A DNA stretch of 64,000 nt. Source: Lingula anatina. Taxonomy: Eukaryota > Animalia > Brachiopoda. The position numbers were made by a program, and so were the translations under genes. The notes below the pieces were generated by a model that was not told where the DNA came from, did no database searches, and worked only from the letters and a program-made list of their open reading frames with translations. Location: NCBI GenBank assembly GCA_051362555.1, contig CM120641.1, forward strand, positions 34,292,401 through 34,356,400, written 5' to 3'. Positions 230-48,561 of this stretch are shown in pieces. The stretch's first letter is position 1. Each line of letters opens with the position of its first letter.

Positions 230-27385
<27,156 letters not shown>

Positions 27386-29224: not shown

Positions 29225-31571
29225 TTAGGACCGACGGTGTAAAACCGGTCGGCGAAGCACTGGCTGTTCTCTAGCACGTAGACGTCTGGCAGGATGGCGA
29301 AATTGTGGGCAGGATGGTGCTGGCTGCTGTGGTGGTGTTGGCACTAAAGGTGGCAAGAACCTGTCGTTCTGGTGTTGCCTGATGGTTGCGCTCTGGCGAG
29401 TCACTGGCCTGGCTTGTGCTGATGCAGGTGCTGGGGTCGCGGGTCTCAGGGGTGGCACATATGGTGGTGGGAGGGCACCTGCGGCTGGTTGCTGTGGTGG
29501 TGTTGGCACTAAAGGTGGCAATAACCTGTTGTTCTGGTGTTGCCTGGTGGTTGCGCCCTGGCGAGTCACTGGCCTGGCCTGTGCTGATGCAGGTGCTGGC
29601 GTCGCGGGTCTCAGGGGTGGCAGAAATGGTGGTGGGAGGGCACCTGCGGCTGGTTGCTGTGGTGGTGTTGGCTCTAAAGGTGGCAATAACCTGTTGTTCT
29701 GGTGTTGCCTGGTGGTTGCGCCCTGGCGAGTCACTGGCCTGGCTTGTGCTGATGCAGGTGCTGGCGTCGCGGGTCTCAGGGGTGGCAGAAATGGTGGTGG
29801 GAGGGCACCTGCGGCTGGTTGCTGTGGTGGTGTTGGCACTAAAGGTGGCAATAACCTGTTGTTCTGGTGTTGCCCGATGGTTGCGCTCTGCCGAGTCACT
29901 GGCCTGGCTTGTGCTGATGCACTCGCAAAAGCAGGTGCTGGTGTCGTGGTTCTCATGGGTGGCAGAAATGATGGAGTGAGGGCACCTGCGGCTGGTGGTG
30001 TCGGTGAGCCTTGTCTGCCGTTTGGACTACGCAGAGCGGTTGCTGCCTCTGGCTGGTGAGGTGTGGTAGTCAGGCGTGGCAGAGAGTGTGGTGTCTGGCC
30101 GTTGACGGAACCAGGCCTAGTGAATACCGACTCTTGCCGTACAGGTCTTGGCGTCAGGGGTGTGAGGGGCGGCAGCAACGATGGCGGAAGGGCACCTGAG
30201 GCTCTTGGCAAGTCCTGTCTCAGATTTAGACTATGCAGAGGGGCCATTGCCTCTGGCTGGCGAGGTACTGCAGCCAGGCGTGGCAGAGAGAGTGGTGTCT
30301 GCCAGCTAACGGTACCACCCCTAGTGGATACTGCCTCTAAACTTGCTACTGCTGGTGTCGATGGTCTTAGGTGTGGCAGATATAGTGGTCTCTCTCCGTG
30401 GCATGGTCTCCACTGACTTGTGGCCGTTTCTTGCAGAGGAGCTGAAGTCTGCTGTGGTGGAAACTGTAGGGTCAGCATGCGATCATGAGTACTCTCAGTG
30501 TGCACTCTGATTTTAGGGGGTGGGGATGGGACCAGACTTGGCATAGCCTGTGCTGCAAGGCCACTTGGGGGAGTCCGTATACCAGTCTTTTCATCTTCCT
30601 GTGGAGTGTCAGACTCCGGCAGATGCTGCAATTGTTGCTCGGCATCTGGGTTTAACTCGGCCACTCTGAACGCTGCGCGTGCCCTTCGTATGGAGGCGAG
30701 TGTTTTTATACATGTCAGATATTTGGGACATGGTCTTTGCTGAATTGGGGCAGGCTCCGAGGGTGGACAAGGAAGTTTGGTGTCGCTGCTTCTGCAGACC
30801 TGCTTGTGAGCAAGGTTAGGCGGTGCGGGAGCCGCTGAAGTGGATGATAGAGCCAGTGCCCGATGTACTGCCCTGGAGTATATTTCTGACCTGAGGCTGA
30901 ATCTAGTGGGAGTATCTTGTACCGAGTTGGGGATCTTAGCTGTTCTTGGTCTGGAGCTTGATCCGTTACAAGCTGACGACGGTAGAGGCGCCTGTGTCCG
31001 CCTAGGGATCCTTGAAGGAATTGCTGCCGACTTGGCATTATTTTGTGCTGGGCTGGTGACCCTGGATGCTGTGCGGCTTGAACCAGCAGCACTTGGCGGG
31101 CCGGTAGCAATATGTGTCGGCGCGGGAATCCTCGATGGTCTGAGACCATGCCCAGTAGCACCCTTCGGCTGAGGCTCAATAACAACAGAGGCCAGCCCTG
31201 GAGTACTTGATGGTCTGCGTGGCCCGTCAAAGCCAGGTGCTAGAAGAGCGTCTTCTTCTTTCTCATCGGGCACATTACCCAATGCGTATACCCAGAACTT
31301 CGCCGTCTTTAATTTCTTGTCAAGCTTGCGAATATAAAGAGGCAACGGCTGTGTATGTATCTTTTTTCTTTTGTCTGGAAAAGTAAAAACATTGTTTTTG
31401 TTTATAGACAAACTGTTGCCACTGGCCTTTCTCTGTACAAAATTTGAGTTTTTAACAGTGTATAGGCCATTTGGGTATCTACGTACGTATATTGTGTGCT
31501 AAATGCGAAAGCGTGCAATAATGAGTGTGCCCTACGTGTTCTAAGATATGTAATGAAGCAAAATTCCATTC

Positions 31572-41859: not shown

Positions 41860-42055
41860 GCTGAAAAACTAAAGGGTTAAAAACCATAGATTATTCATAT
41901 GCAGGAAATCGTCAGTCATGTGCAGCCCCCCCCCCCCCCCCCCAAAAAAAAAAAAAAAAAAAAACATGGGCAAGCAATTCATTCAAAGGTGCCTAGGTAA
42001 AAGTTAACACCCATTCACACAGAGACAGTATATATCCTGAAACATTTTTTCAGTC

Positions 42056-42374
42056 TGTTACGAATAAGCAAACTTCTTTAGTCTTTTTCACATCTATTTT
42101 ATTTGCTTGTCATTGAAATTGTCACGTAGAAACTGAAATGAACAAAATACATCAAATTAAGAAATTATCCTTAAATTATGTTACAATTACAGCTTATAAA
42201 GTTCTTATTAACTGTTTAAATTACTAAATGATTCATAAAGTCTTACCTCATTGCGGGAATTAGTGTCTTTTAGTGATCAGAACATAACTAACTATAAGCG
42301 CGTGCTCTAGTCAAAAAAGTAAAACGCTATCTCCACCGATGTGCATAACAGCTAAGACGGGCCAAACCTTAACA
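42056..42374 (-). repeat. 3' LTR
   Basis: TGTTA…TAACA ends; identical by eye to 47899-48217. Confidence 0.97.
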
Positions 42375-42664
42375 TGGCTCCCCTAAATTGTGAAAGCAAT
42401 TTACACAATATACACTGTTTACCTTATCATTACGTATAAAAAATATTTGCTCGGAAATTATTAAGAATTACCGTACCTTAATCAACTTTAAGGAACATCA
42501 AAACTTACTGTTAATTACTGTATTTAAACATAAAATACCTTGCAATCCCATAAACACAAATAGCCCAACATTTAACTGTCTTTAGAAAACAAAAGTGTTC
42601 ATTAAATCTACACAAACTGTAGCATAGAATCATAACAAACTAACACTATTGTCACAGTTAACAG

Positions 42665-45600
42665 TTATTTTGGCTCCTCGACGGGGTCTTCTCCGGTCAA
42701 TAAAAGAATTAACTTGTGCACTGGTCTCTCATATGTAGAGTCCCTAACTTTCAACTTGACCTTACGCACATATCCATCTGCACTTTGAAAGGTTTCTACT
42801 ATGCGACCAAGTGGCCACTGATTTCTTGGTGCACTGTCATCTATCATGAGAACAATATCTCCAACTTGTACATCTCTACATTGTTTGATCCACTTTTTTC
42901 TCTCTTGTAATGTAGGAAGAAATTCCTTTCTCCACCTGTTCCAAAATTCATTGGCTAGATATTGAACATGTCGCCATCTTCGATGAAGGTATGTGTCTTT
43001 CCTTATGAAATTCCCAGGTGGTGGCATCACGACCTTAGTTTTCAGGGTCAGGAGCTGATTTGGAGACAAAGGCATTGGAGAATCTGGTGACTGTGTATCA
43101 ATGTAAGTCAAAGGTCTACTGTTAACTATGGCTTCTGCCTCAGTTAACAATGTGGACAAGGAATCATCATCTAAACGGTCACTGTGAGCTGTGAGAAGTC
43201 CTGATAAAGCATTTCTGGCTGATCTGATCATTCTTTCCCACACGCCTCCCATATGTGAAGCATGAGGAACATTCATTTTAAACTGAATCCAGTCACAATG
43301 GTCTTTCAGAAGTTCTCTCCTGATCTTGTCCTGATCCATATCCATAAAGGCAGTTTCTTGCTCTCCCTTAACTCCAATGAAATTGGTTCCACGGTCTGCT
43401 CTGAGTAGACGTACTGGTCCACGCCTGCATACAAAGCGTCTGTAGCAGTTAATGAAAGAATCTGTGCTGAGTGAATACGCAACTTCTATATGAATAGCAC
43501 GTGATGCTAAACATGTAAACATAGCACCATATCTCTTCATCTGCTTTCTTCCCTCCTTCACATAGAATGGTCCAAAAAAATCTACTGCACTGTAGGTGAA
43601 TGGAGGTGCTGGTTCCAGTCTGTCAGCTGGAAGATCTGACATTTTCTGACTCTGTGAGTTTGCTCGTAGCTTACGACAGGTCACACATTTCCATATATAT
43701 GATCCAATCTTGGCACGGCCAGAAATTATCCAATAACCACTAGCTCGGACTTCATTAAGAGTAATGCCACTTCCTGAATGTCCACATCGTGTATGATAGT
43801 GGTCAATTATGAGATTTGTAACATGATGATGCTTAGGCAGAATCACTGGGTGTGTAAGCTCTCTGGGTAGATTTGCCCTCTTTATACGACCACCTACTCT
43901 GAGTAGTCCATCTTCACATAAAAATGGGTCTAAGCGGTATAGTGAACTGGTTTTCTTGATTTGTTCGTTGCGATATCTTGCCTGTTTTCTCTCTGTGTGT
44001 TCACTGTTATCTTCTCTGTTAATTGCTTTCAGTATTGCAATTTCCTTCTCAAATGTAGCAATCTGTGTTGACTTGAGAATGATCTTTTCTGCCACTTGTA
44101 TTTCTTGAACATTCAACGGTTCATTGCTGGTCTCAACTGTGTTCTGCTGTGTAGATTTCCTGTTCTTAGCTTGTTTCAGCTTCTGTATGAATCGTAAACA
44201 CCACGTAACAACTCGTGTTGCTCTGTTCCAGGAAGAAAACCTTTTCAATACATCAGACAAGTGATCGTGGTTGGTTTCTACTTTAGTAGCAAATACATTG
44301 ACTTCAGATTTGCGTACTTCTGGGTCATCTGGTGCTAGTCTGAATTGGGTATCAGTGGTAGATAGTGGTTCATCAATGCGCAGAAAGTCTGGCCCACTCC
44401 ACCACTGTTCATTCTGTAGTAGCTCTGTCACACCTGTTCCCCTGGAGGCTATATCAGCTGGGTTGTCACTGGACTTAACATGCCTCCATTGGGATGGCTG
44501 ACTGACTTCTCTAATTTGTTGTATTCTATTTGCTACAAAGACATGAAATCTCTTAGCATCATTATTGACATACCCTAGAACAACTTTGCTGTCAGTCCAA
44601 TACACATGGGTGATGTCCTCATACTCTAACTCCTTGGCAAGAAAGGTCCCCACCTTTATAGACATCACTGCTGCTGACAACTCTAGGCGTGGGACTGTCA
44701 CTGGTTTAGAGGGAGCTACCTTGGACTTGCCCATAACTAATGTGGTTGCTATTCTTCCTGTGTTGCTTTTAAGTCTCAAGTAACTGCACTGACCTAGGCC
44801 TTCTACACTGGCATCTGAGAAGTGATGAAGTTCTGCAGTAGTCACTTCACCAAAATCATTTGGCTTATAGCACCGTGGTATATTCAACTTGGTTAAGTTC
44901 AGCAAATCTGAGCGCCATCTTTCCCATCTGCATCTAATACTCTCTGGCACTTGATCATCCCACTCTGCACCGTCTCTGCATAGCTCTTGGAGAATTTTCT
45001 TACCGGCAAGGATGAATGGTGAGACAAGGCCTAAAGGGTCAAATATGGAACTTACAGTGGAGAGAATTCCCCTTCTTGTTAATGGCTTATCATTGATCTG
45101 GACCTTAAACTGAAAACTGTCCGCTTCTACACACCACTGTACTCCTAGAGCTGGGCATATTGGCAATGTGTCTCTGTTAAGGTCAATGTTTCTCATTTCT
45201 TTGGCTCTCTCTGACATTGGGATTGTATTCATCACTTCACGGTTGTTTGATACTAGCTTGTGAAGTCTTAGGTTACCTTTGTTCAGCAGCTCTCTTGTTT
45301 CTCTAACAAGACGTATAGCTTCTTCACTTGACTCAATGCTCTTGAGTCCATCGTCTACATAAAAGTCATTCTTAAGAAAGGCAATGACGTCTGGTGAATA
45401 CTCATCTTGGTAGTCCTCTGCTAGTTTCCTCAGTCCATACAATGCGCATGCTGGTGAACTTATCGCTCCAAATATATGAGACGTCATTCTGTATGTGATG
45501 GGATTACTACTGAGGTCACCGTCTTTCCACCATAGGAACTGTAAAAACTTTCTATCCTCTTCTTTCACTTTAAACCTGTGAAACATGTTCTCCATGTCAC

Positions 45601-47812
45601 CCATGATTGCTACTGGCTGCTCTCTAAACCTCAATAAAACACCTATGAGCGAGTTATTCTGATCAGGTCCTTTCAACAGGCAGTCGTTTAGCGCAACATT
45701 TTCATGTTTTGCACTGGCATCAAACACCACTCGTAATTTCTCACGTTTTTTGGGGTGATATACACCATGATGTGGTAAGTACCAACCTCCATCTTCATGA
45801 GGTGATTCTTCTGCATAGCATTTATCTATGAGGTCCTGCATAAAACTGTTATAGTGCTCATAATACTTCGGGTTGTGGATTAGCCTTTTCCTTAGCTGCT
45901 CTAGCCTGATCTCAGCTGCTGGTTTGTTGTTTGGCAATGCTGGATGTCCATCTTTAAATGGTAGTGGCATCTCATAAAAACCCTCGTTGAAATGTATGCC
46001 TTCCTCCATAATCTTCATGAACTTCTGGTCTTGAAGGCTTAACTTCTCATCTTTCTGTTGGTCGAAACCTTGGTCAAAGAGACTGCAAACCTCAGCGGGG
46101 CTGATCTCTGTCACTTGTGTTCTAAAGGCAAAGGCATGTGTTCCAAAGCTCTTGTTCTCATCTATGGGTCTTGATTTGTCCACTGGCCCTACTATACCCC
46201 AACCTAGGTTACATCTGTATGCATATGGCTCCTCTCCTCTACCATGTATGTACTCCAGACCTCTAATGGCTTTCATACAGTTTACTCCCAACAGCAGTCC
46301 TACCTCTATGTCTGGGCGATAAGGAGTAATCTTATCAGCAATTGAGTGCAAGTGTGGCCATTTCTTAGCAGTTTCTGGTCTGGGTATCTGTGATCGCTTA
46401 ACTGGAATGGAGTCTCTGGAGTATGTATCTGGGAGCTCAATCAATGTCTCTTGGTTCAGACCTCTCACAACAAGTCCTCTAACTTTCCTGCTCGGGACGG
46501 TTTTTTCTCCAAGTATGGTTGAAAGTCTGATGTCTACATGCTTCCCTTTACATTCGAGTTCACTGAGGGTCGAGGACTTTACAAAGCAGGCATCTGACTG
46601 CTCGTCTAGTACTGCATATACCACTGAATAAATGTCTGGATTATCCTCGTGGTGTACTACAACTGGCACTATCATGGAATGCACATTCTCAGAACTGTGG
46701 GTGGTATGGCATACAGCTGCTCCCACTACTTTACTAGTGTAATTGTCATCATGTAGAATTGTTGGATGATAAGAGTTACATTTTTGGCATTTCATTTTAC
46801 TTCTGCATTCATGTTTTCTGTGACCATATGCAAGGCACCCAAAACATAACCCATTATTCTTTATAATGCCGATTCTTTCATCCATTGTCTTTTCTTGCAT
46901 TTCTGGGCATTGGTGAAGTTTATGTTGTTCCTTGCATAATATACACTTGTGAACGTGTCTTTCGTTGCTGGATGCAGAGGCACTAGACAGTACTGTTTGT
47001 GCTGGAACTCTTCTCCTTGGTGCTGGTATAGGTCTCTCTGGTGGCGGTGGAACCTTTCCAAAAATGGGGTCAGCCAATTTTCGTGCTTCTTTCTGCACAA
47101 AATCGACGAAAACCTGAAAGGTTATCTTCTGTCCCCTTTCCTTCCTTTCATATACTATGCTTCTCCATTTATCATGCAATTTGAGCGGCAGCTTCGTCAT
47201 TAGCCTCTTAAGGTTATCGGGATACTCGAGGACTGGAATGGCATCTATTTCTTTTACTGCATATTCACATTCCCTTAAAAATATGCCGTATTTGTCTAAT
47301 GCGACATAATCATCATGCTTTATCACTGGCCACTGTAAGGCACGGTTTATATACGATGTCGCAATCTGTTCTTGGTCCCCATACCTTCTCTCAAATTCCT
47401 TCCATGTGGCCTTGAAACCAATGGATGCATCTAAGTGAGCGAATCCTAGCGTAATTTCATGAGGCTCACCTCTGGTGTATTGCAGTAGATAGTTCAGTTT
47501 TTCATCGTCAGAGTCGCATGTTTCTATGATTCTACTTTTGAACTGTCTCTTAAACAGCACATATTTGATCGGGTCACCTTCAAATACTTGAATCTGAATT
47601 CTTGGTTTACTGAGTTCCTTTGCTATCGTAGTTTGCTCACACAAAGTGAGTGGGGCACAAGATGTTAGTGTGTTTTTGGGCGTAGATGTCTTTTTTATGT
47701 TTGACTTTGTGAAGTTAAAATGCCTTTCTAACTCACGCATGGTTTGGTCTATATCCGACTCTACCCTTTTTAGTTCTGCTTGGAGAAGTATCATTTCTGC
47801 TTGTGTTGCCAT
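42665..47812 (-). CDS. Gag-Pol polyprotein (1715 aa): Gag with three Cys/His knuckles, protease, RT, RNase H, integrase
   Basis: Knuckles CILCKEQHKLHQC, CFGCLAYGHRKHEC, CQKCNSYHPTILH; protease AVLDEQS; RT WYLPHHGVYHPKK, LRVVFDAS, FYVDD; RNase H HFSDAS; integrase H-x4-H…CVTC, DFFGPF, DRGTNF, GGVWERM. PR-RT-RH-IN order; no env. Confidence 0.97.
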   Translation of the reverse strand: MATQAEMILLQAELKRVESDIDQTMRELERHFNFTKSNIKKTSTPKNTLTSCAPLTLCEQTTIAKELSKPRIQIQVFEGDPIKYVLFKRQFKSRIIETCDSDDEKLNYLLQYTRGEPHEITLGFAHLDASIGFKATWKEFERRYGDQEQIATSYINRALQWPVIKHDDYVALDKYGIFLRECEYAVKEIDAIPVLEYPDNLKRLMTKLPLKLHDKWRSIVYERKERGQKITFQVFVDFVQKEARKLADPIFGKVPPPPERPIPAPRRRVPAQTVLSSASASSNERHVHKCILCKEQHKLHQCPEMQEKTMDERIGIIKNNGLCFGCLAYGHRKHECRSKMKCQKCNSYHPTILHDDNYTSKVVGAAVCHTTHSSENVHSMIVPVVVHHEDNPDIYSVVYAVLDEQSDACFVKSSTLSELECKGKHVDIRLSTILGEKTVPSRKVRGLVVRGLNQETLIELPDTYSRDSIPVKRSQIPRPETAKKWPHLHSIADKITPYRPDIEVGLLLGVNCMKAIRGLEYIHGRGEEPYAYRCNLGWGIVGPVDKSRPIDENKSFGTHAFAFRTQVTEISPAEVCSLFDQGFDQQKDEKLSLQDQKFMKIMEEGIHFNEGFYEMPLPFKDGHPALPNNKPAAEIRLEQLRKRLIHNPKYYEHYNSFMQDLIDKCYAEESPHEDGGWYLPHHGVYHPKKREKLRVVFDASAKHENVALNDCLLKGPDQNNSLIGVLLRFREQPVAIMGDMENMFHRFKVKEEDRKFLQFLWWKDGDLSSNPITYRMTSHIFGAISSPACALYGLRKLAEDYQDEYSPDVIAFLKNDFYVDDGLKSIESSEEAIRLVRETRELLNKGNLRLHKLVSNNREVMNTIPMSERAKEMRNIDLNRDTLPICPALGVQWCVEADSFQFKVQINDKPLTRRGILSTVSSIFDPLGLVSPFILAGKKILQELCRDGAEWDDQVPESIRCRWERWRSDLLNLTKLNIPRCYKPNDFGEVTTAELHHFSDASVEGLGQCSYLRLKSNTGRIATTLVMGKSKVAPSKPVTVPRLELSAAVMSIKVGTFLAKELEYEDITHVYWTDSKVVLGYVNNDAKRFHVFVANRIQQIREVSQPSQWRHVKSSDNPADIASRGTGVTELLQNEQWWSGPDFLRIDEPLSTTDTQFRLAPDDPEVRKSEVNVFATKVETNHDHLSDVLKRFSSWNRATRVVTWCLRFIQKLKQAKNRKSTQQNTVETSNEPLNVQEIQVAEKIILKSTQIATFEKEIAILKAINREDNSEHTERKQARYRNEQIKKTSSLYRLDPFLCEDGLLRVGGRIKRANLPRELTHPVILPKHHHVTNLIIDHYHTRCGHSGSGITLNEVRASGYWIISGRAKIGSYIWKCVTCRKLRANSQSQKMSDLPADRLEPAPPFTYSAVDFFGPFYVKEGRKQMKRYGAMFTCLASRAIHIEVAYSLSTDSFINCYRRFVCRRGPVRLLRADRGTNFIGVKGEQETAFMDMDQDKIRRELLKDHCDWIQFKMNVPHASHMGGVWERMIRSARNALSGLLTAHSDRLDDDSLSTLLTEAEAIVNSRPLTYIDTQSPDSPMPLSPNQLLTLKTKVVMPPPGNFIRKDTYLHRRWRHVQYLANEFWNRWRKEFLPTLQERKKWIKQCRDVQVGDIVLMIDDSAPRNQWPLGRIVETFQSADGYVRKVKLKVRDSTYERPVHKLILLLTGEDPVEEPK

Positions 47813-47836: not shown

Positions 47837-47898
47837 TCTTTCACTAAATCGTCGCTCAGTTTCTACTATCTTTCACTAAATCGTCGCTGAGTTTCTAC
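47837..47898 (-). promoter_or_regulatory. Non-tRNA primer-binding region: two 30-nt copies (period 32) abutting the 5' LTR
   Basis: Sense strand reads GTAGAAACTCAGCGACGATTTAGTGAAAGA then GTAGAAACTGAGCGACGATTTAGTGAAAGA. No TGG start. Complementary to LTR positions 47969-47979. Confidence 0.7.
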
Positions 47899-48217
47899 TG
47901 TTACGAATAAGCAAACTTCTTTAGTCTTTTTCACATCTATTTTATTTGCTTGTCATTGAAATTGTCACGTAGAAACTGAAATGAACAAAATACATCAAAT
48001 TAAGAAATTATCCTTAAATTATGTTACAATTACAGCTTATAAAGTTCTTATTAACTGTTTAAATTACTAAATGATTCATAAAGTCTTACCTCATTGCGGG
48101 AATTAGTGTCTTTTAGTGATCAGAACATAACTAACTATAAGCGCGTGCTCTAGTCAAAAAAGTAAAACGCTATCTCCACCGATGTGCATAACAGCTAAGA
48201 CGGGCCAAACCTTAACA
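47899..48217 (-). repeat. 5' LTR, with an intron-like segment (48089 to 47976) and a poly(A) signal (47941-47946)
   Basis: Sense GAG|gtaagac donor, ttttgttcatttcag acceptor, and AATAAA about 30 nt after the acceptor. Confidence 0.95.
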
Positions 48218-48561
48218 CAGTCATTGATTTTGATTCACCTCTTCGCTTTTCATCTCTTGCTCTCGTCTCAGGTTTCGGCCTTCCATCATAGTAGTAGTAG
48301 TAGTACATGCCAAGTTAGTAAGTTAGTATATGCGACACTTTTGCAGACCCCCCCTTCCCCCTATTGACGTTTTGGACTCTTGATTTGCATGCTATGCTAA
48401 TACAGAATGTATAACAAAAATTGTAAATAGCAGTGCTAATTTCGTGCTACAGTACCCCCCCCCCCCCCCCCAATAACAACAAGTATTTGATTTCCCATAT
48501 CTCCCCCTTGCAGCATGCACGTCTGACAACTAAGGCAAAGTCATACTCAAACAAAACTTAC

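Follow-up and report, generated by a model that had tools for sequence, protein, structure and literature searches.

In the 64,000-nucleotide (nt) stretch of Lingula anatina DNA analysed here (the window), an intact BEL/Pao-type long terminal repeat (LTR) retrotransposon of 6162 nt lies on the - strand and carries the 3′ end of transfer RNA (tRNA)-Asp at two places upstream of its 3′ LTR. Both copies are identical in sense to the tRNA on the strand of the open reading frame (ORF), so that binding sites for the tRNA exist only on the minus-strand DNA. Comparison with related elements suggests that host tRNA-Asp would dock on this minus-strand DNA and prime the plus strand at the edge of the 3′ LTR, and that a spliced piece of the element's own RNA would start the minus strand. 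The probability of this reading is put at roughly 0.55.

Two copies of the tRNA-Asp 3′ end in the window element

The shorter copy, the edge motif GGGGAGCCA (42375..42383, - strand), directly abuts the TG of the 3′ LTR and matches tRNA-Asp positions 68-76, including CCA, at 9/9 letters. It occupies the position of the polypurine tract, which in the window reads as seven purines leading into CCA; seven of the nine letters of the motif are purines. The longer copy, the inner motif GACCGGAGAAGACCCCGTCGAGGAGCCA (42671..42698, - strand), starts 296 nt upstream of the edge motif in the terminal codons of the ORF. It consists of tRNA-Asp 45-53 (7/8, at 42691-42698), a shortened T-loop and positions 61-76 (15/16) when aligned with the Drosophila tRNA-Asp(GTC) printed in an excerpt of bioRxiv 10.1101/2025.05.12.653498, a reference that may differ from the host's tRNA. 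Relative to the mammalian tRNA-Asp printed in an excerpt of PMC5699543, which may likewise differ from that of the host, the match is 14/16 at 42671-42686. An earlier note on this DNA, in which both motifs were pointed out, is borne out on these matters: its coordinates and strand, its 9/9 and 14/16 matches (against the printed mammalian sequence) and its separation of about 300 nt agree with the values given here, and the tRNA-Asp 3′ end that it gave agrees with both printed sequences.

The 16-mer, with at most two mismatches, occurs once in the 64-kb window and in 0/100 shuffles. The edge 9-mer by itself is not rare (at least one occurrence in 13/100 shuffles of the 64 kb), and its weight therefore comes from its position and conservation. 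The inner motif, with its shortened T-loop, is not part of a recognizable tRNA gene: within the window, ARAGORN made no tRNA call and no Rfam tRNA match was obtained.

Joint occurrence of the two motifs among relatives

Relatives were collected by a metagenome scan based on protein and blind to the motifs. The scan matched 599 stretches, of which 584 were relatives, and the best 80 were kept, yielding 79 loci. Together with the window element, these loci represent 58 families at <80% protein identity (median identity 54%), and synonymous sites among related families are saturated. The linkage count covers 48 families, as ten were omitted (one too short, nine without an edge call). Edge calls were corrected by hand in four cases: the printed edges of L008 and L012 led to their being classed as tRNA-type, and for L032 and L037 the second match was taken as the edge. 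A tRNA-type edge is present in 27/48 families and another purine tract in 21/48. All 27 families with a tRNA-type edge contain the inner motif (score of at least 18.5), versus none of the 21 families with another tract (score of at most 16.5); the expected co-occurrence of the motifs in relatives is thus observed across the 48 families. The inner motif is also present in 3/9 families without an edge call.

On a careful 48-row tree, built from the integrase region of the relatives, the edge and inner labels each require four changes, and all three independent pairs agree. The distance from inner to edge motif ranges from 35 to 698 nt and is mostly ~80-150 nt. At individual positions of the inner motif (n = 30), C61 and C62 are present in 30 families, C63 and C67 in 29, A46 in 28, and C48 and C49 in 27. 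Among host copies, the 3′ untranslated region (UTR) has ~20 variant positions, none of which falls in either motif, a weak indication since the motifs are short. Viral contigs yielded no relatives, no tRNA-Asp gene and no inner motif, and prokaryote genomes yielded no tRNA-to-LTR junction; both collections are unsuitable for such elements, and these blanks carry no evidential weight. Seven motif matches in prokaryote genomes, none of them near a BEL-like ORF, were taken as chance.

Conservation of the inner motif as nucleotides

The 30 inner motifs differ in coding context: 12 are translated in one frame and 4 in a second, 10 sit past a stop codon and are non-coding, 1 contains the stop and 3 have no assigned context. 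Among 120 listed protein homologues, scored with loose patterns and with near-copies counted, 43 end in a DRGIPxEEP-like tail, 16 in a TGESQPRS/DSQSGS-like tail and 2 in a PDGGA-like tail; 59 show none of the three, many through an earlier stop. These three tail types are three frames of one nucleotide sequence. Mean pairwise identity is 0.77 in the motif, whereas the two flanks give 0.29 and 0.27 and the fourfold sites, taken from 22 families, give 0.29. Conservation at the nucleotide level, synonymous sites included, had been proposed in the earlier note as a test, and it holds independently of frame. Because the motif occurs in different reading frames and past stop codons, the inner motif is, judging from these alignments, under selection as nucleotides; protein-level constraint as its cause is ruled out by the non-coding and other-frame copies. 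As a separate observation, the motif-encoded tail is present as four tandem copies at the C-terminus of one protein (P0055), suggesting that the inner site is arrayed there in tandem.

Pattern of change and the strand probably bound by tRNA-Asp

Departures of the sense sequence from the tRNA have opposite meanings for the two possible pairings. With the tRNA paired to the minus strand, a G>A or T>C change in the sense sequence leaves a wobble and a C>T or A>G change a mismatch; the reverse applies to pairing with sense RNA. The observed departures of the inner motif comprise 64 G>A cells (24 of them at position 69), 7 C>T and 1 A>G, and position 66 (n = 30) is T in 7 families, C in 12, A in 11 and G in none. 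When changes are counted on a quick tree, 40 G/A changes over 11 G sites are obtained versus 7 C/T changes over 9 C sites, and the 10 non-coding motifs alone show 12 G>A versus 2 C>T. This G>A excess fits G-T wobble of a tRNA bound to the minus strand. Base composition apparently does not account for the bias, because the 3′ UTR leans to T, opposite to it (T/(T+C) 0.74, A/(A+G) 0.61), and fourfold sites lean only mildly to A.

Other features point to the same strand. The predicted duplex of the 3′ part of the tRNA is -44 kcal/mol with the minus-strand motif versus -23 kcal/mol with the sense motif (RNA parameters serving as proxy), and in the predicted duplex of the window 24 positions are paired with the T-loop of the tRNA left unpaired. 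Letters 45, 46 and 48 of the variable loop lack a pairing partner in the RNA and persist in 22, 28 and 27 of 30 families. A hairpin formed by the minus strand itself would tolerate the same T-stem changes but would leave 45-48 and 66-76 unexplained. Overall, tRNA-Asp very probably pairs functionally with the antisense strand in some capacity.

A probable tRNA-Asp capture in a sister element

The element L009 is sister to the window element (support 99/98) and has an ORF-end motif of its own. In addition, its 3′ UTR contains, 140 nt past the ORF (1106-1186), tRNA-Asp positions 21-76 with the GTC anticodon and CCA, with two mismatches relative to the Drosophila gene; ARAGORN labels this stretch tRNA-Asp(gtc). 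As CCA is not encoded by eukaryotic tRNA genes, the stretch suggests, and is best read as, a mature tRNA-Asp copied during reverse transcription. The 25 nt preceding the capture weakly resemble the 5′ part of the tRNA or an A box, and the stretch may be a full capture or an RNA polymerase III (Pol III) template.

An LTR splice joint complementary to the minus-strand primer site

Each LTR of the window element contains a 114-nt GT..AG intron (47976..48089 in the 5′ LTR, 42133-42246 in the 3′ LTR, - strand), recognized from an RNA junction and the donor and acceptor letters. In RNA run X14, junctions that skip the 114 nt are covered by 4 and 7 reads, which come from a diverged LTR copy. No intron-less joint was present in the DNA contigs of two runs. 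The primer-binding site (PBS) after the 5′ LTR (47888..47898, - strand) has no TGG and is a predicted target for self-priming, with 11-nt complementarity to the exon-exon joint of the LTR: exon 2 accounts for 7 of these pairs and the end of exon 1 for the other 4, and 9 nt pair with the unspliced sequence. The site, called self-complementary in the earlier note, is thus not a tRNA site.

Pairing of 10-12 nt across the splice joint occurs in 9/14 loci (the window, L002, L007, L008, L016, L024, L029, L052 and L072) and is kept among families with differing, compensating letters. Of the other five loci, which yielded no joint, three have no upstream sequence and two have no acceptor within 300 nt. 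Joint pairing is also seen in sisters with ordinary tracts; predicted self-priming thus extends more widely than the tRNA-Asp motifs, which are carried by a subset of the self-priming elements.

Three further observations concern this region. The surroundings of the primer site are duplicated in tandem in the window (2 x 31 nt, 47837..47898, - strand); the first copy is complementary over 11 nt to the spliced joint, and the second over 11 nt to the unspliced acceptor. In L010 (~6915-6935), the 3′ LTR appears joined (intron-less) and pairs 11 nt with the primer site, and the 5′ LTR retains the acceptor; the two LTRs are 88% alike, and the contig may mix copies. The diverged LTR of run X14 is probably solo, has other flanks, and is transcribed and spliced within another transcript.

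Hairpin and LTR edge

A 7-bp hairpin (42384..42403, - strand) ends directly before the edge motif. In relatives, the stem has at least 5 bp with several pair types per position: a perfect stem of at least 5 bp is present in 26/27 tRNA-type families versus 0/26 controls, and an equivalent hairpin precedes the ordinary tract in 14/21 sister families (0/17 controls). The hairpin pairs are compensatory among families. The tRNA match ends at position 68 because the hairpin starts there, and as sisters have the hairpin too, the layout is common to both groups and the difference lies in the primer letters alone.

Pairwise identity of the edge is 0.96 among tRNA-type families versus 0.56 among the sisters, which are also more divergent. 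A76 is present at the edge in 27/27 families, and four of the five edge departures are G>A. This A76 adjoins the TG of the LTR without a spacer in 25/27 families and lies 2 nt away in 2/27. In contrast, position 76 of the inner motif is not A in 8/30 families. Because position 76 is often not A there and always A at the edge, the letters of the inner site suggest docking or a secondary role rather than priming on a par with the edge. Of the second, internal priming site proposed in the earlier note, the motif is confirmed and the equal priming role is not. A repeat of the tract at the ORF end is found in 0/21 sisters with ordinary tracts versus 18/27 tRNA-type families.

A putative tRNA-primed plus strand and its alternatives

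In the proposed mechanism, a piece of the element's own spliced RNA would start the minus strand. Reverse transcriptase (RT) would copy ~100-300 nt beyond the LTR and RNase H would clear the RNA, exposing the inner site, which would open the T-arm and acceptor stem of tRNA-Asp and dock positions 45-53 and ~57-76 with T54-C56 looped out. The last 9 nt of the tRNA would then pair perfectly at the edge, bounded by the hairpin, and RT would extend from A76 beside the TG of the LTR. The weaker 3′ end of the inner site, with its wobble at 69 and frequent mismatch at 76, would favour hand-over of the tRNA 3′ end to the edge. Alternatively, a second tRNA may prime at the inner site and displace strong-stop DNA for strand transfer, similar to the re-priming of Ty3. 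Plus-strand priming by tRNA-Asp had been the central proposal of the earlier note; its minus-strand pairing is supported by the comparative tests and by the pattern of change, and from these the priming itself is inferred. The wider statement that a widespread animal lineage has swapped the textbook primers, with its own spliced RNA for the minus strand and a host tRNA-Asp docked in two parts for the plus strand, is put forward only tentatively.

Several points weigh against plus-strand priming by tRNA-Asp. After minus-strand synthesis, an RNA fragment of identical sequence would already be annealed at the edge and would be the default primer. The edge 9-mer is purine-rich (7/9), and the hairpin before it also precedes the ordinary tract in 14/21 sisters. 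The main oddity is A69 of the inner site (24/30), a wobble on the minus strand that would pair better, as a perfect partner of tRNA U4, on the sense strand; the edge has G at this position in 25/27 families. Fourfold sites lean in the same direction as the G>A bias, more weakly (A/(A+G) 0.64 vs T/(T+C) 0.52), and the L009 capture is known from one contig. As to linkage, the score cut-off for the inner motif was chosen after viewing the data, 3/27 inner scores (18.5-20.5) fall inside the range of the null maxima and a common 9-nt core alone can yield ~18 points; the linkage argument is therefore carried by the per-position counts given above. One family, L014, has the inner motif with no edge match within 1.6 kb and is a possible exception. 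The second LTR confirms 6/27 tRNA-type edges, the remainder being pattern calls, and three independent pairs alone back the linkage, a number short of significance (sign test p 0.25), with 3-4 independent transitions.

An ordinary tract at the edge is the alternative to which most of these points lead. In it, the edge is an RNase H-resistant purine tract and the true plus-strand primer, and tRNA-Asp is only a helper at the inner site of the minus strand, acting as a back-up or displacing primer or protecting single-stranded DNA; the tract would have converged on the tRNA end since one RT/RNase H handles both. The tract fragment has the same sequence as the tRNA end, and this possibility can therefore not be told from tRNA priming by sequence alone. 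The hairpin context shared with sister tracts, the purine-rich edge and the fragment already in place are all in its favour, as is the published description of the Belpaoviridae, in which a polypurine tract of ~10 nt primes the plus strand (PMC8742986). Moreover, Ty1 and Ty3 re-use their own tracts, as described in a portion of PMC5371799. A tract by itself does not, however, explain an edge that is near-invariant (0.96 vs 0.56), with CCA and A76 in 27/27 families and four of five departures being G>A. Neither does it explain why this edge is gained and lost jointly with the inner motif, when ordinary tracts are repeated at the ORF end in none of 21 sisters versus 18 of 27 tRNA-type families. 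This alternative is considered unlikely but is the main rival.

A function of the motifs on the sense RNA, either as a folded tRNA-like end for a protein or as a strand that captures the 5′ acceptor strand of the tRNA for packaging, is improbable. Viral tRNA mimicry is established (in a portion of PMC10424219), A69 would form a Watson-Crick pair with tRNA-Asp U4, the hairpin with CCA resembles a minihelix, and L009 combines A-box-like and B-box letters with an ARAGORN tRNA call. A folded sense mimic, or intramolecular T-hairpin, was nevertheless rejected since the T-stem lacks covariation: 101/150 sense-strand pairs are Watson-Crick versus 104 expected from column shuffles, with a single compensatory change, and 26 A-C pairs are present versus 5 G-U. 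The window itself gave no Rfam tRNA match. For the capture of the acceptor strand, G>A at 50, 65 and 68 would break sense pairing with the tRNA, and 73-75 would be partnerless yet are almost fixed. A role of this kind could coexist with plus-strand priming.

It is quite improbable that the packaged genome is a transcript antisense to the ORF, in which the + strand of the window, reading LTR-CA and then TGGCTCCCC, would present a canonical tRNA-Asp primer site for first-strand priming as usual. The wobble pattern suits any antisense RNA or DNA, and some RNA reads run in the minority direction. However, the spliced LTR intron and AATAAA both lie in the direction of the ORF. Genome polarity would also need 3-4 flips, given the sense purine tract used by sisters that share the self-primer. 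RNA reads are sparse (39, 49, 0, 30; 15, 36) and show no start or end pile-ups; those of the internal region run mostly in one direction in X11, X15 and X12, are mixed in X16 and are absent in X17. Provided that these are standard stranded libraries, the prevailing direction is ORF sense, which argues mildly against an antisense genome.

Just as doubtful is the possibility that the sites are targets of tRNA-Asp fragments on antisense transcripts, for regulation or silencing, with no role in priming. The wobble pattern fits, and 3′ tRNA fragments are known to act on the primer sites of retroelements (PMC7472051), but the abutment of A76 and TG (25/27) and the conservation of 45-53 are left unexplained. 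Finally, chance, a PxEEP tail under protein constraint or an old tRNA capture left as a neutral relic can be dismissed: the 9-mer alone is not rare and many relatives end in PxEEP, but 10/30 motifs are non-coding, others lie in another frame, and identity is 0.77 versus 0.27-0.29 at flanks and fourfold sites.

Architecture of the element and other features of the window

The 5′ LTR (47899..48217, - strand; 319 nt, TG...CA) is 100% identical to the 3′ LTR (42056..42374, - strand; 319 nt), in which AATAAA lies at 42098-42103. Both are enclosed by a 5-bp target-site duplication, GACTG (42051..42055, - strand; other copy at 48218-48222). A single gag-pol ORF (42665..47812, - strand) encodes 1715 amino acids from the first ATG without an internal stop and matches the Pfam families DUF1759, Peptidase_A17 and DUF5641. 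PF05380 and PF18701 are present in 120/120 of the listed homologues, and those named among them come from a sea anemone, a coral, a barnacle, a shrimp and a limpet. The element is a young BEL/Pao-type retrotransposon of an animal.

Members of the Belpaoviridae have LTRs of 0.2-1.2 kb, a genome of 4.2-10 kb and Gag, protease, RT, RNase H and integrase in one or two ORFs (PMC8742986). With BEL-type domains in one ORF, 319-nt LTRs and a length of 6162 nt, the window element is within these ranges. The same description gives an 18-nt PBS for tRNA-Arg or tRNA-Gly after the 5′ LTR (PMC8742986); no such site, and no TGG, follows the 5′ LTR of the window element. For this reason, it is filed as BEL/Pao-type by its protein and not as a fit to the description of the International Committee on Taxonomy of Viruses.

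Elsewhere in the window, a 757-codon open frame (29225-31498, - strand) lies on 165-nt tandem repeats and is proline-rich without a Pfam match, and an exon-like frame (118-714, - strand) matches models of the VPS13 family below the cut-offs.

Comparison with known systems

In the descriptions consulted, the first strand starts from a tRNA or self-primer and the second from a purine tract; a tRNA-primed second strand, if true, would be a further priming mode. RT and RNase H would then be rewirable at both primers, the tRNA primer would define the end of U3, and sister families would have switched repeatedly between tRNA and purine-tract priming. For BEL/Pao elements, whose replication is called poorly understood (PMC8742986), the proposal makes a testable prediction as to which RNA joins the first TG of plus-strand DNA. 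For annotation, tools that orient elements by an LTR-adjacent TGG site would read these elements backwards. Even if the edge is an ordinary tract, the literature searched yielded no conserved minus-strand site for tRNA-Asp.

No report of a tRNA-primed plus strand or of these motifs was found in that literature; supplements, Repbase, GyDB and most subscription papers lie outside its scope and could hold an earlier mention. The portions consulted of BEL/Pao surveys (among PMC554778, PMC3118150, PMC6238403, PMC8556966 and PMC8220671) contain no report of tRNA-Asp motifs or tRNA-primed plus strands, and PBS, polypurine tract and tRNA are not mentioned in the available main texts of four of them. 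In the part available of a plant survey, three primer types are distinguished, all for the first strand (PMC6317226).

The window element resembles the Belpaoviridae (PMC8742986) in its single gag-pol ORF, BEL-specific Pfam families, LTR and element size and animal host. It differs from them in the tRNA-Asp 3′ end at the position of the purine tract and in the second, longer tRNA-Asp motif at the end of the ORF.

HIV-1, too, carries a tRNA-like stretch close to its 3′ end that has been connected with reverse transcription. A tRNA-Lys3 gene-like sequence in its U3-R region reportedly promotes minus-strand transfer (Piekna-Przybylska 2010, by title) and is said to be complementary to the tRNA on the RNA. 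The Helenus TRIMs, miniature retrotransposons with terminal repeats, likewise contain tRNA-derived sequence within an LTR retrotransposon; unlike the window motifs, which lie outside the LTR and keep CCA, their tRNA part lies inside the LTR, provides a Pol III promoter and accompanies an ordinary PBS and polypurine tract (in a portion of PMC10886601). The central polypurine tract of HIV-1 and Ty1 is comparable in that the sequence priming the plus strand occurs a second time within the element (portions of PMC11241228 and PMC5371799). In contrast to it, the inner copy is not central (35-698 nt from the edge) and extends 20 nt further into pyrimidine-rich tRNA sequence.

The predicted self-priming resembles that of Tf1 and sushi elements, whose primer site pairs with ~11 nt of their own LTR transcript (portions of PMC6317226 and PMC5371799). 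Here, however, splicing creates the 11 nt at its joint, and the retrotransposon is of BEL/Pao type and not a chromovirus. In Tf1/sushi elements, RNase H releases the opening nucleotides of the transcript as the primer, whereas a primer spanning the joint would be internal. The plus strand of Tf1 is primed by a purine tract.

The closest parallel for the tRNA-Asp sites is the bipartite site of Ty3 and Ty1, in which a short match to the acceptor end at the LTR edge is combined with a distant T-arm site for the same tRNA (in a portion of PMC5371799). Families of the window type show the same combination, with 68-76 at the edge and 45-53 and 61-76 of one tRNA at the inner site. Unlike the Ty3 and Ty1 sites, which are complementary to the tRNA on genomic RNA and serve the start of the minus strand (same portion of PMC5371799), the window sites, located at the 3′ LTR, have the sequence of the tRNA itself on the ORF strand. 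By this analogy, the proposed mechanism would be the bipartite site of Ty3 mirrored onto the other strand and the other LTR.

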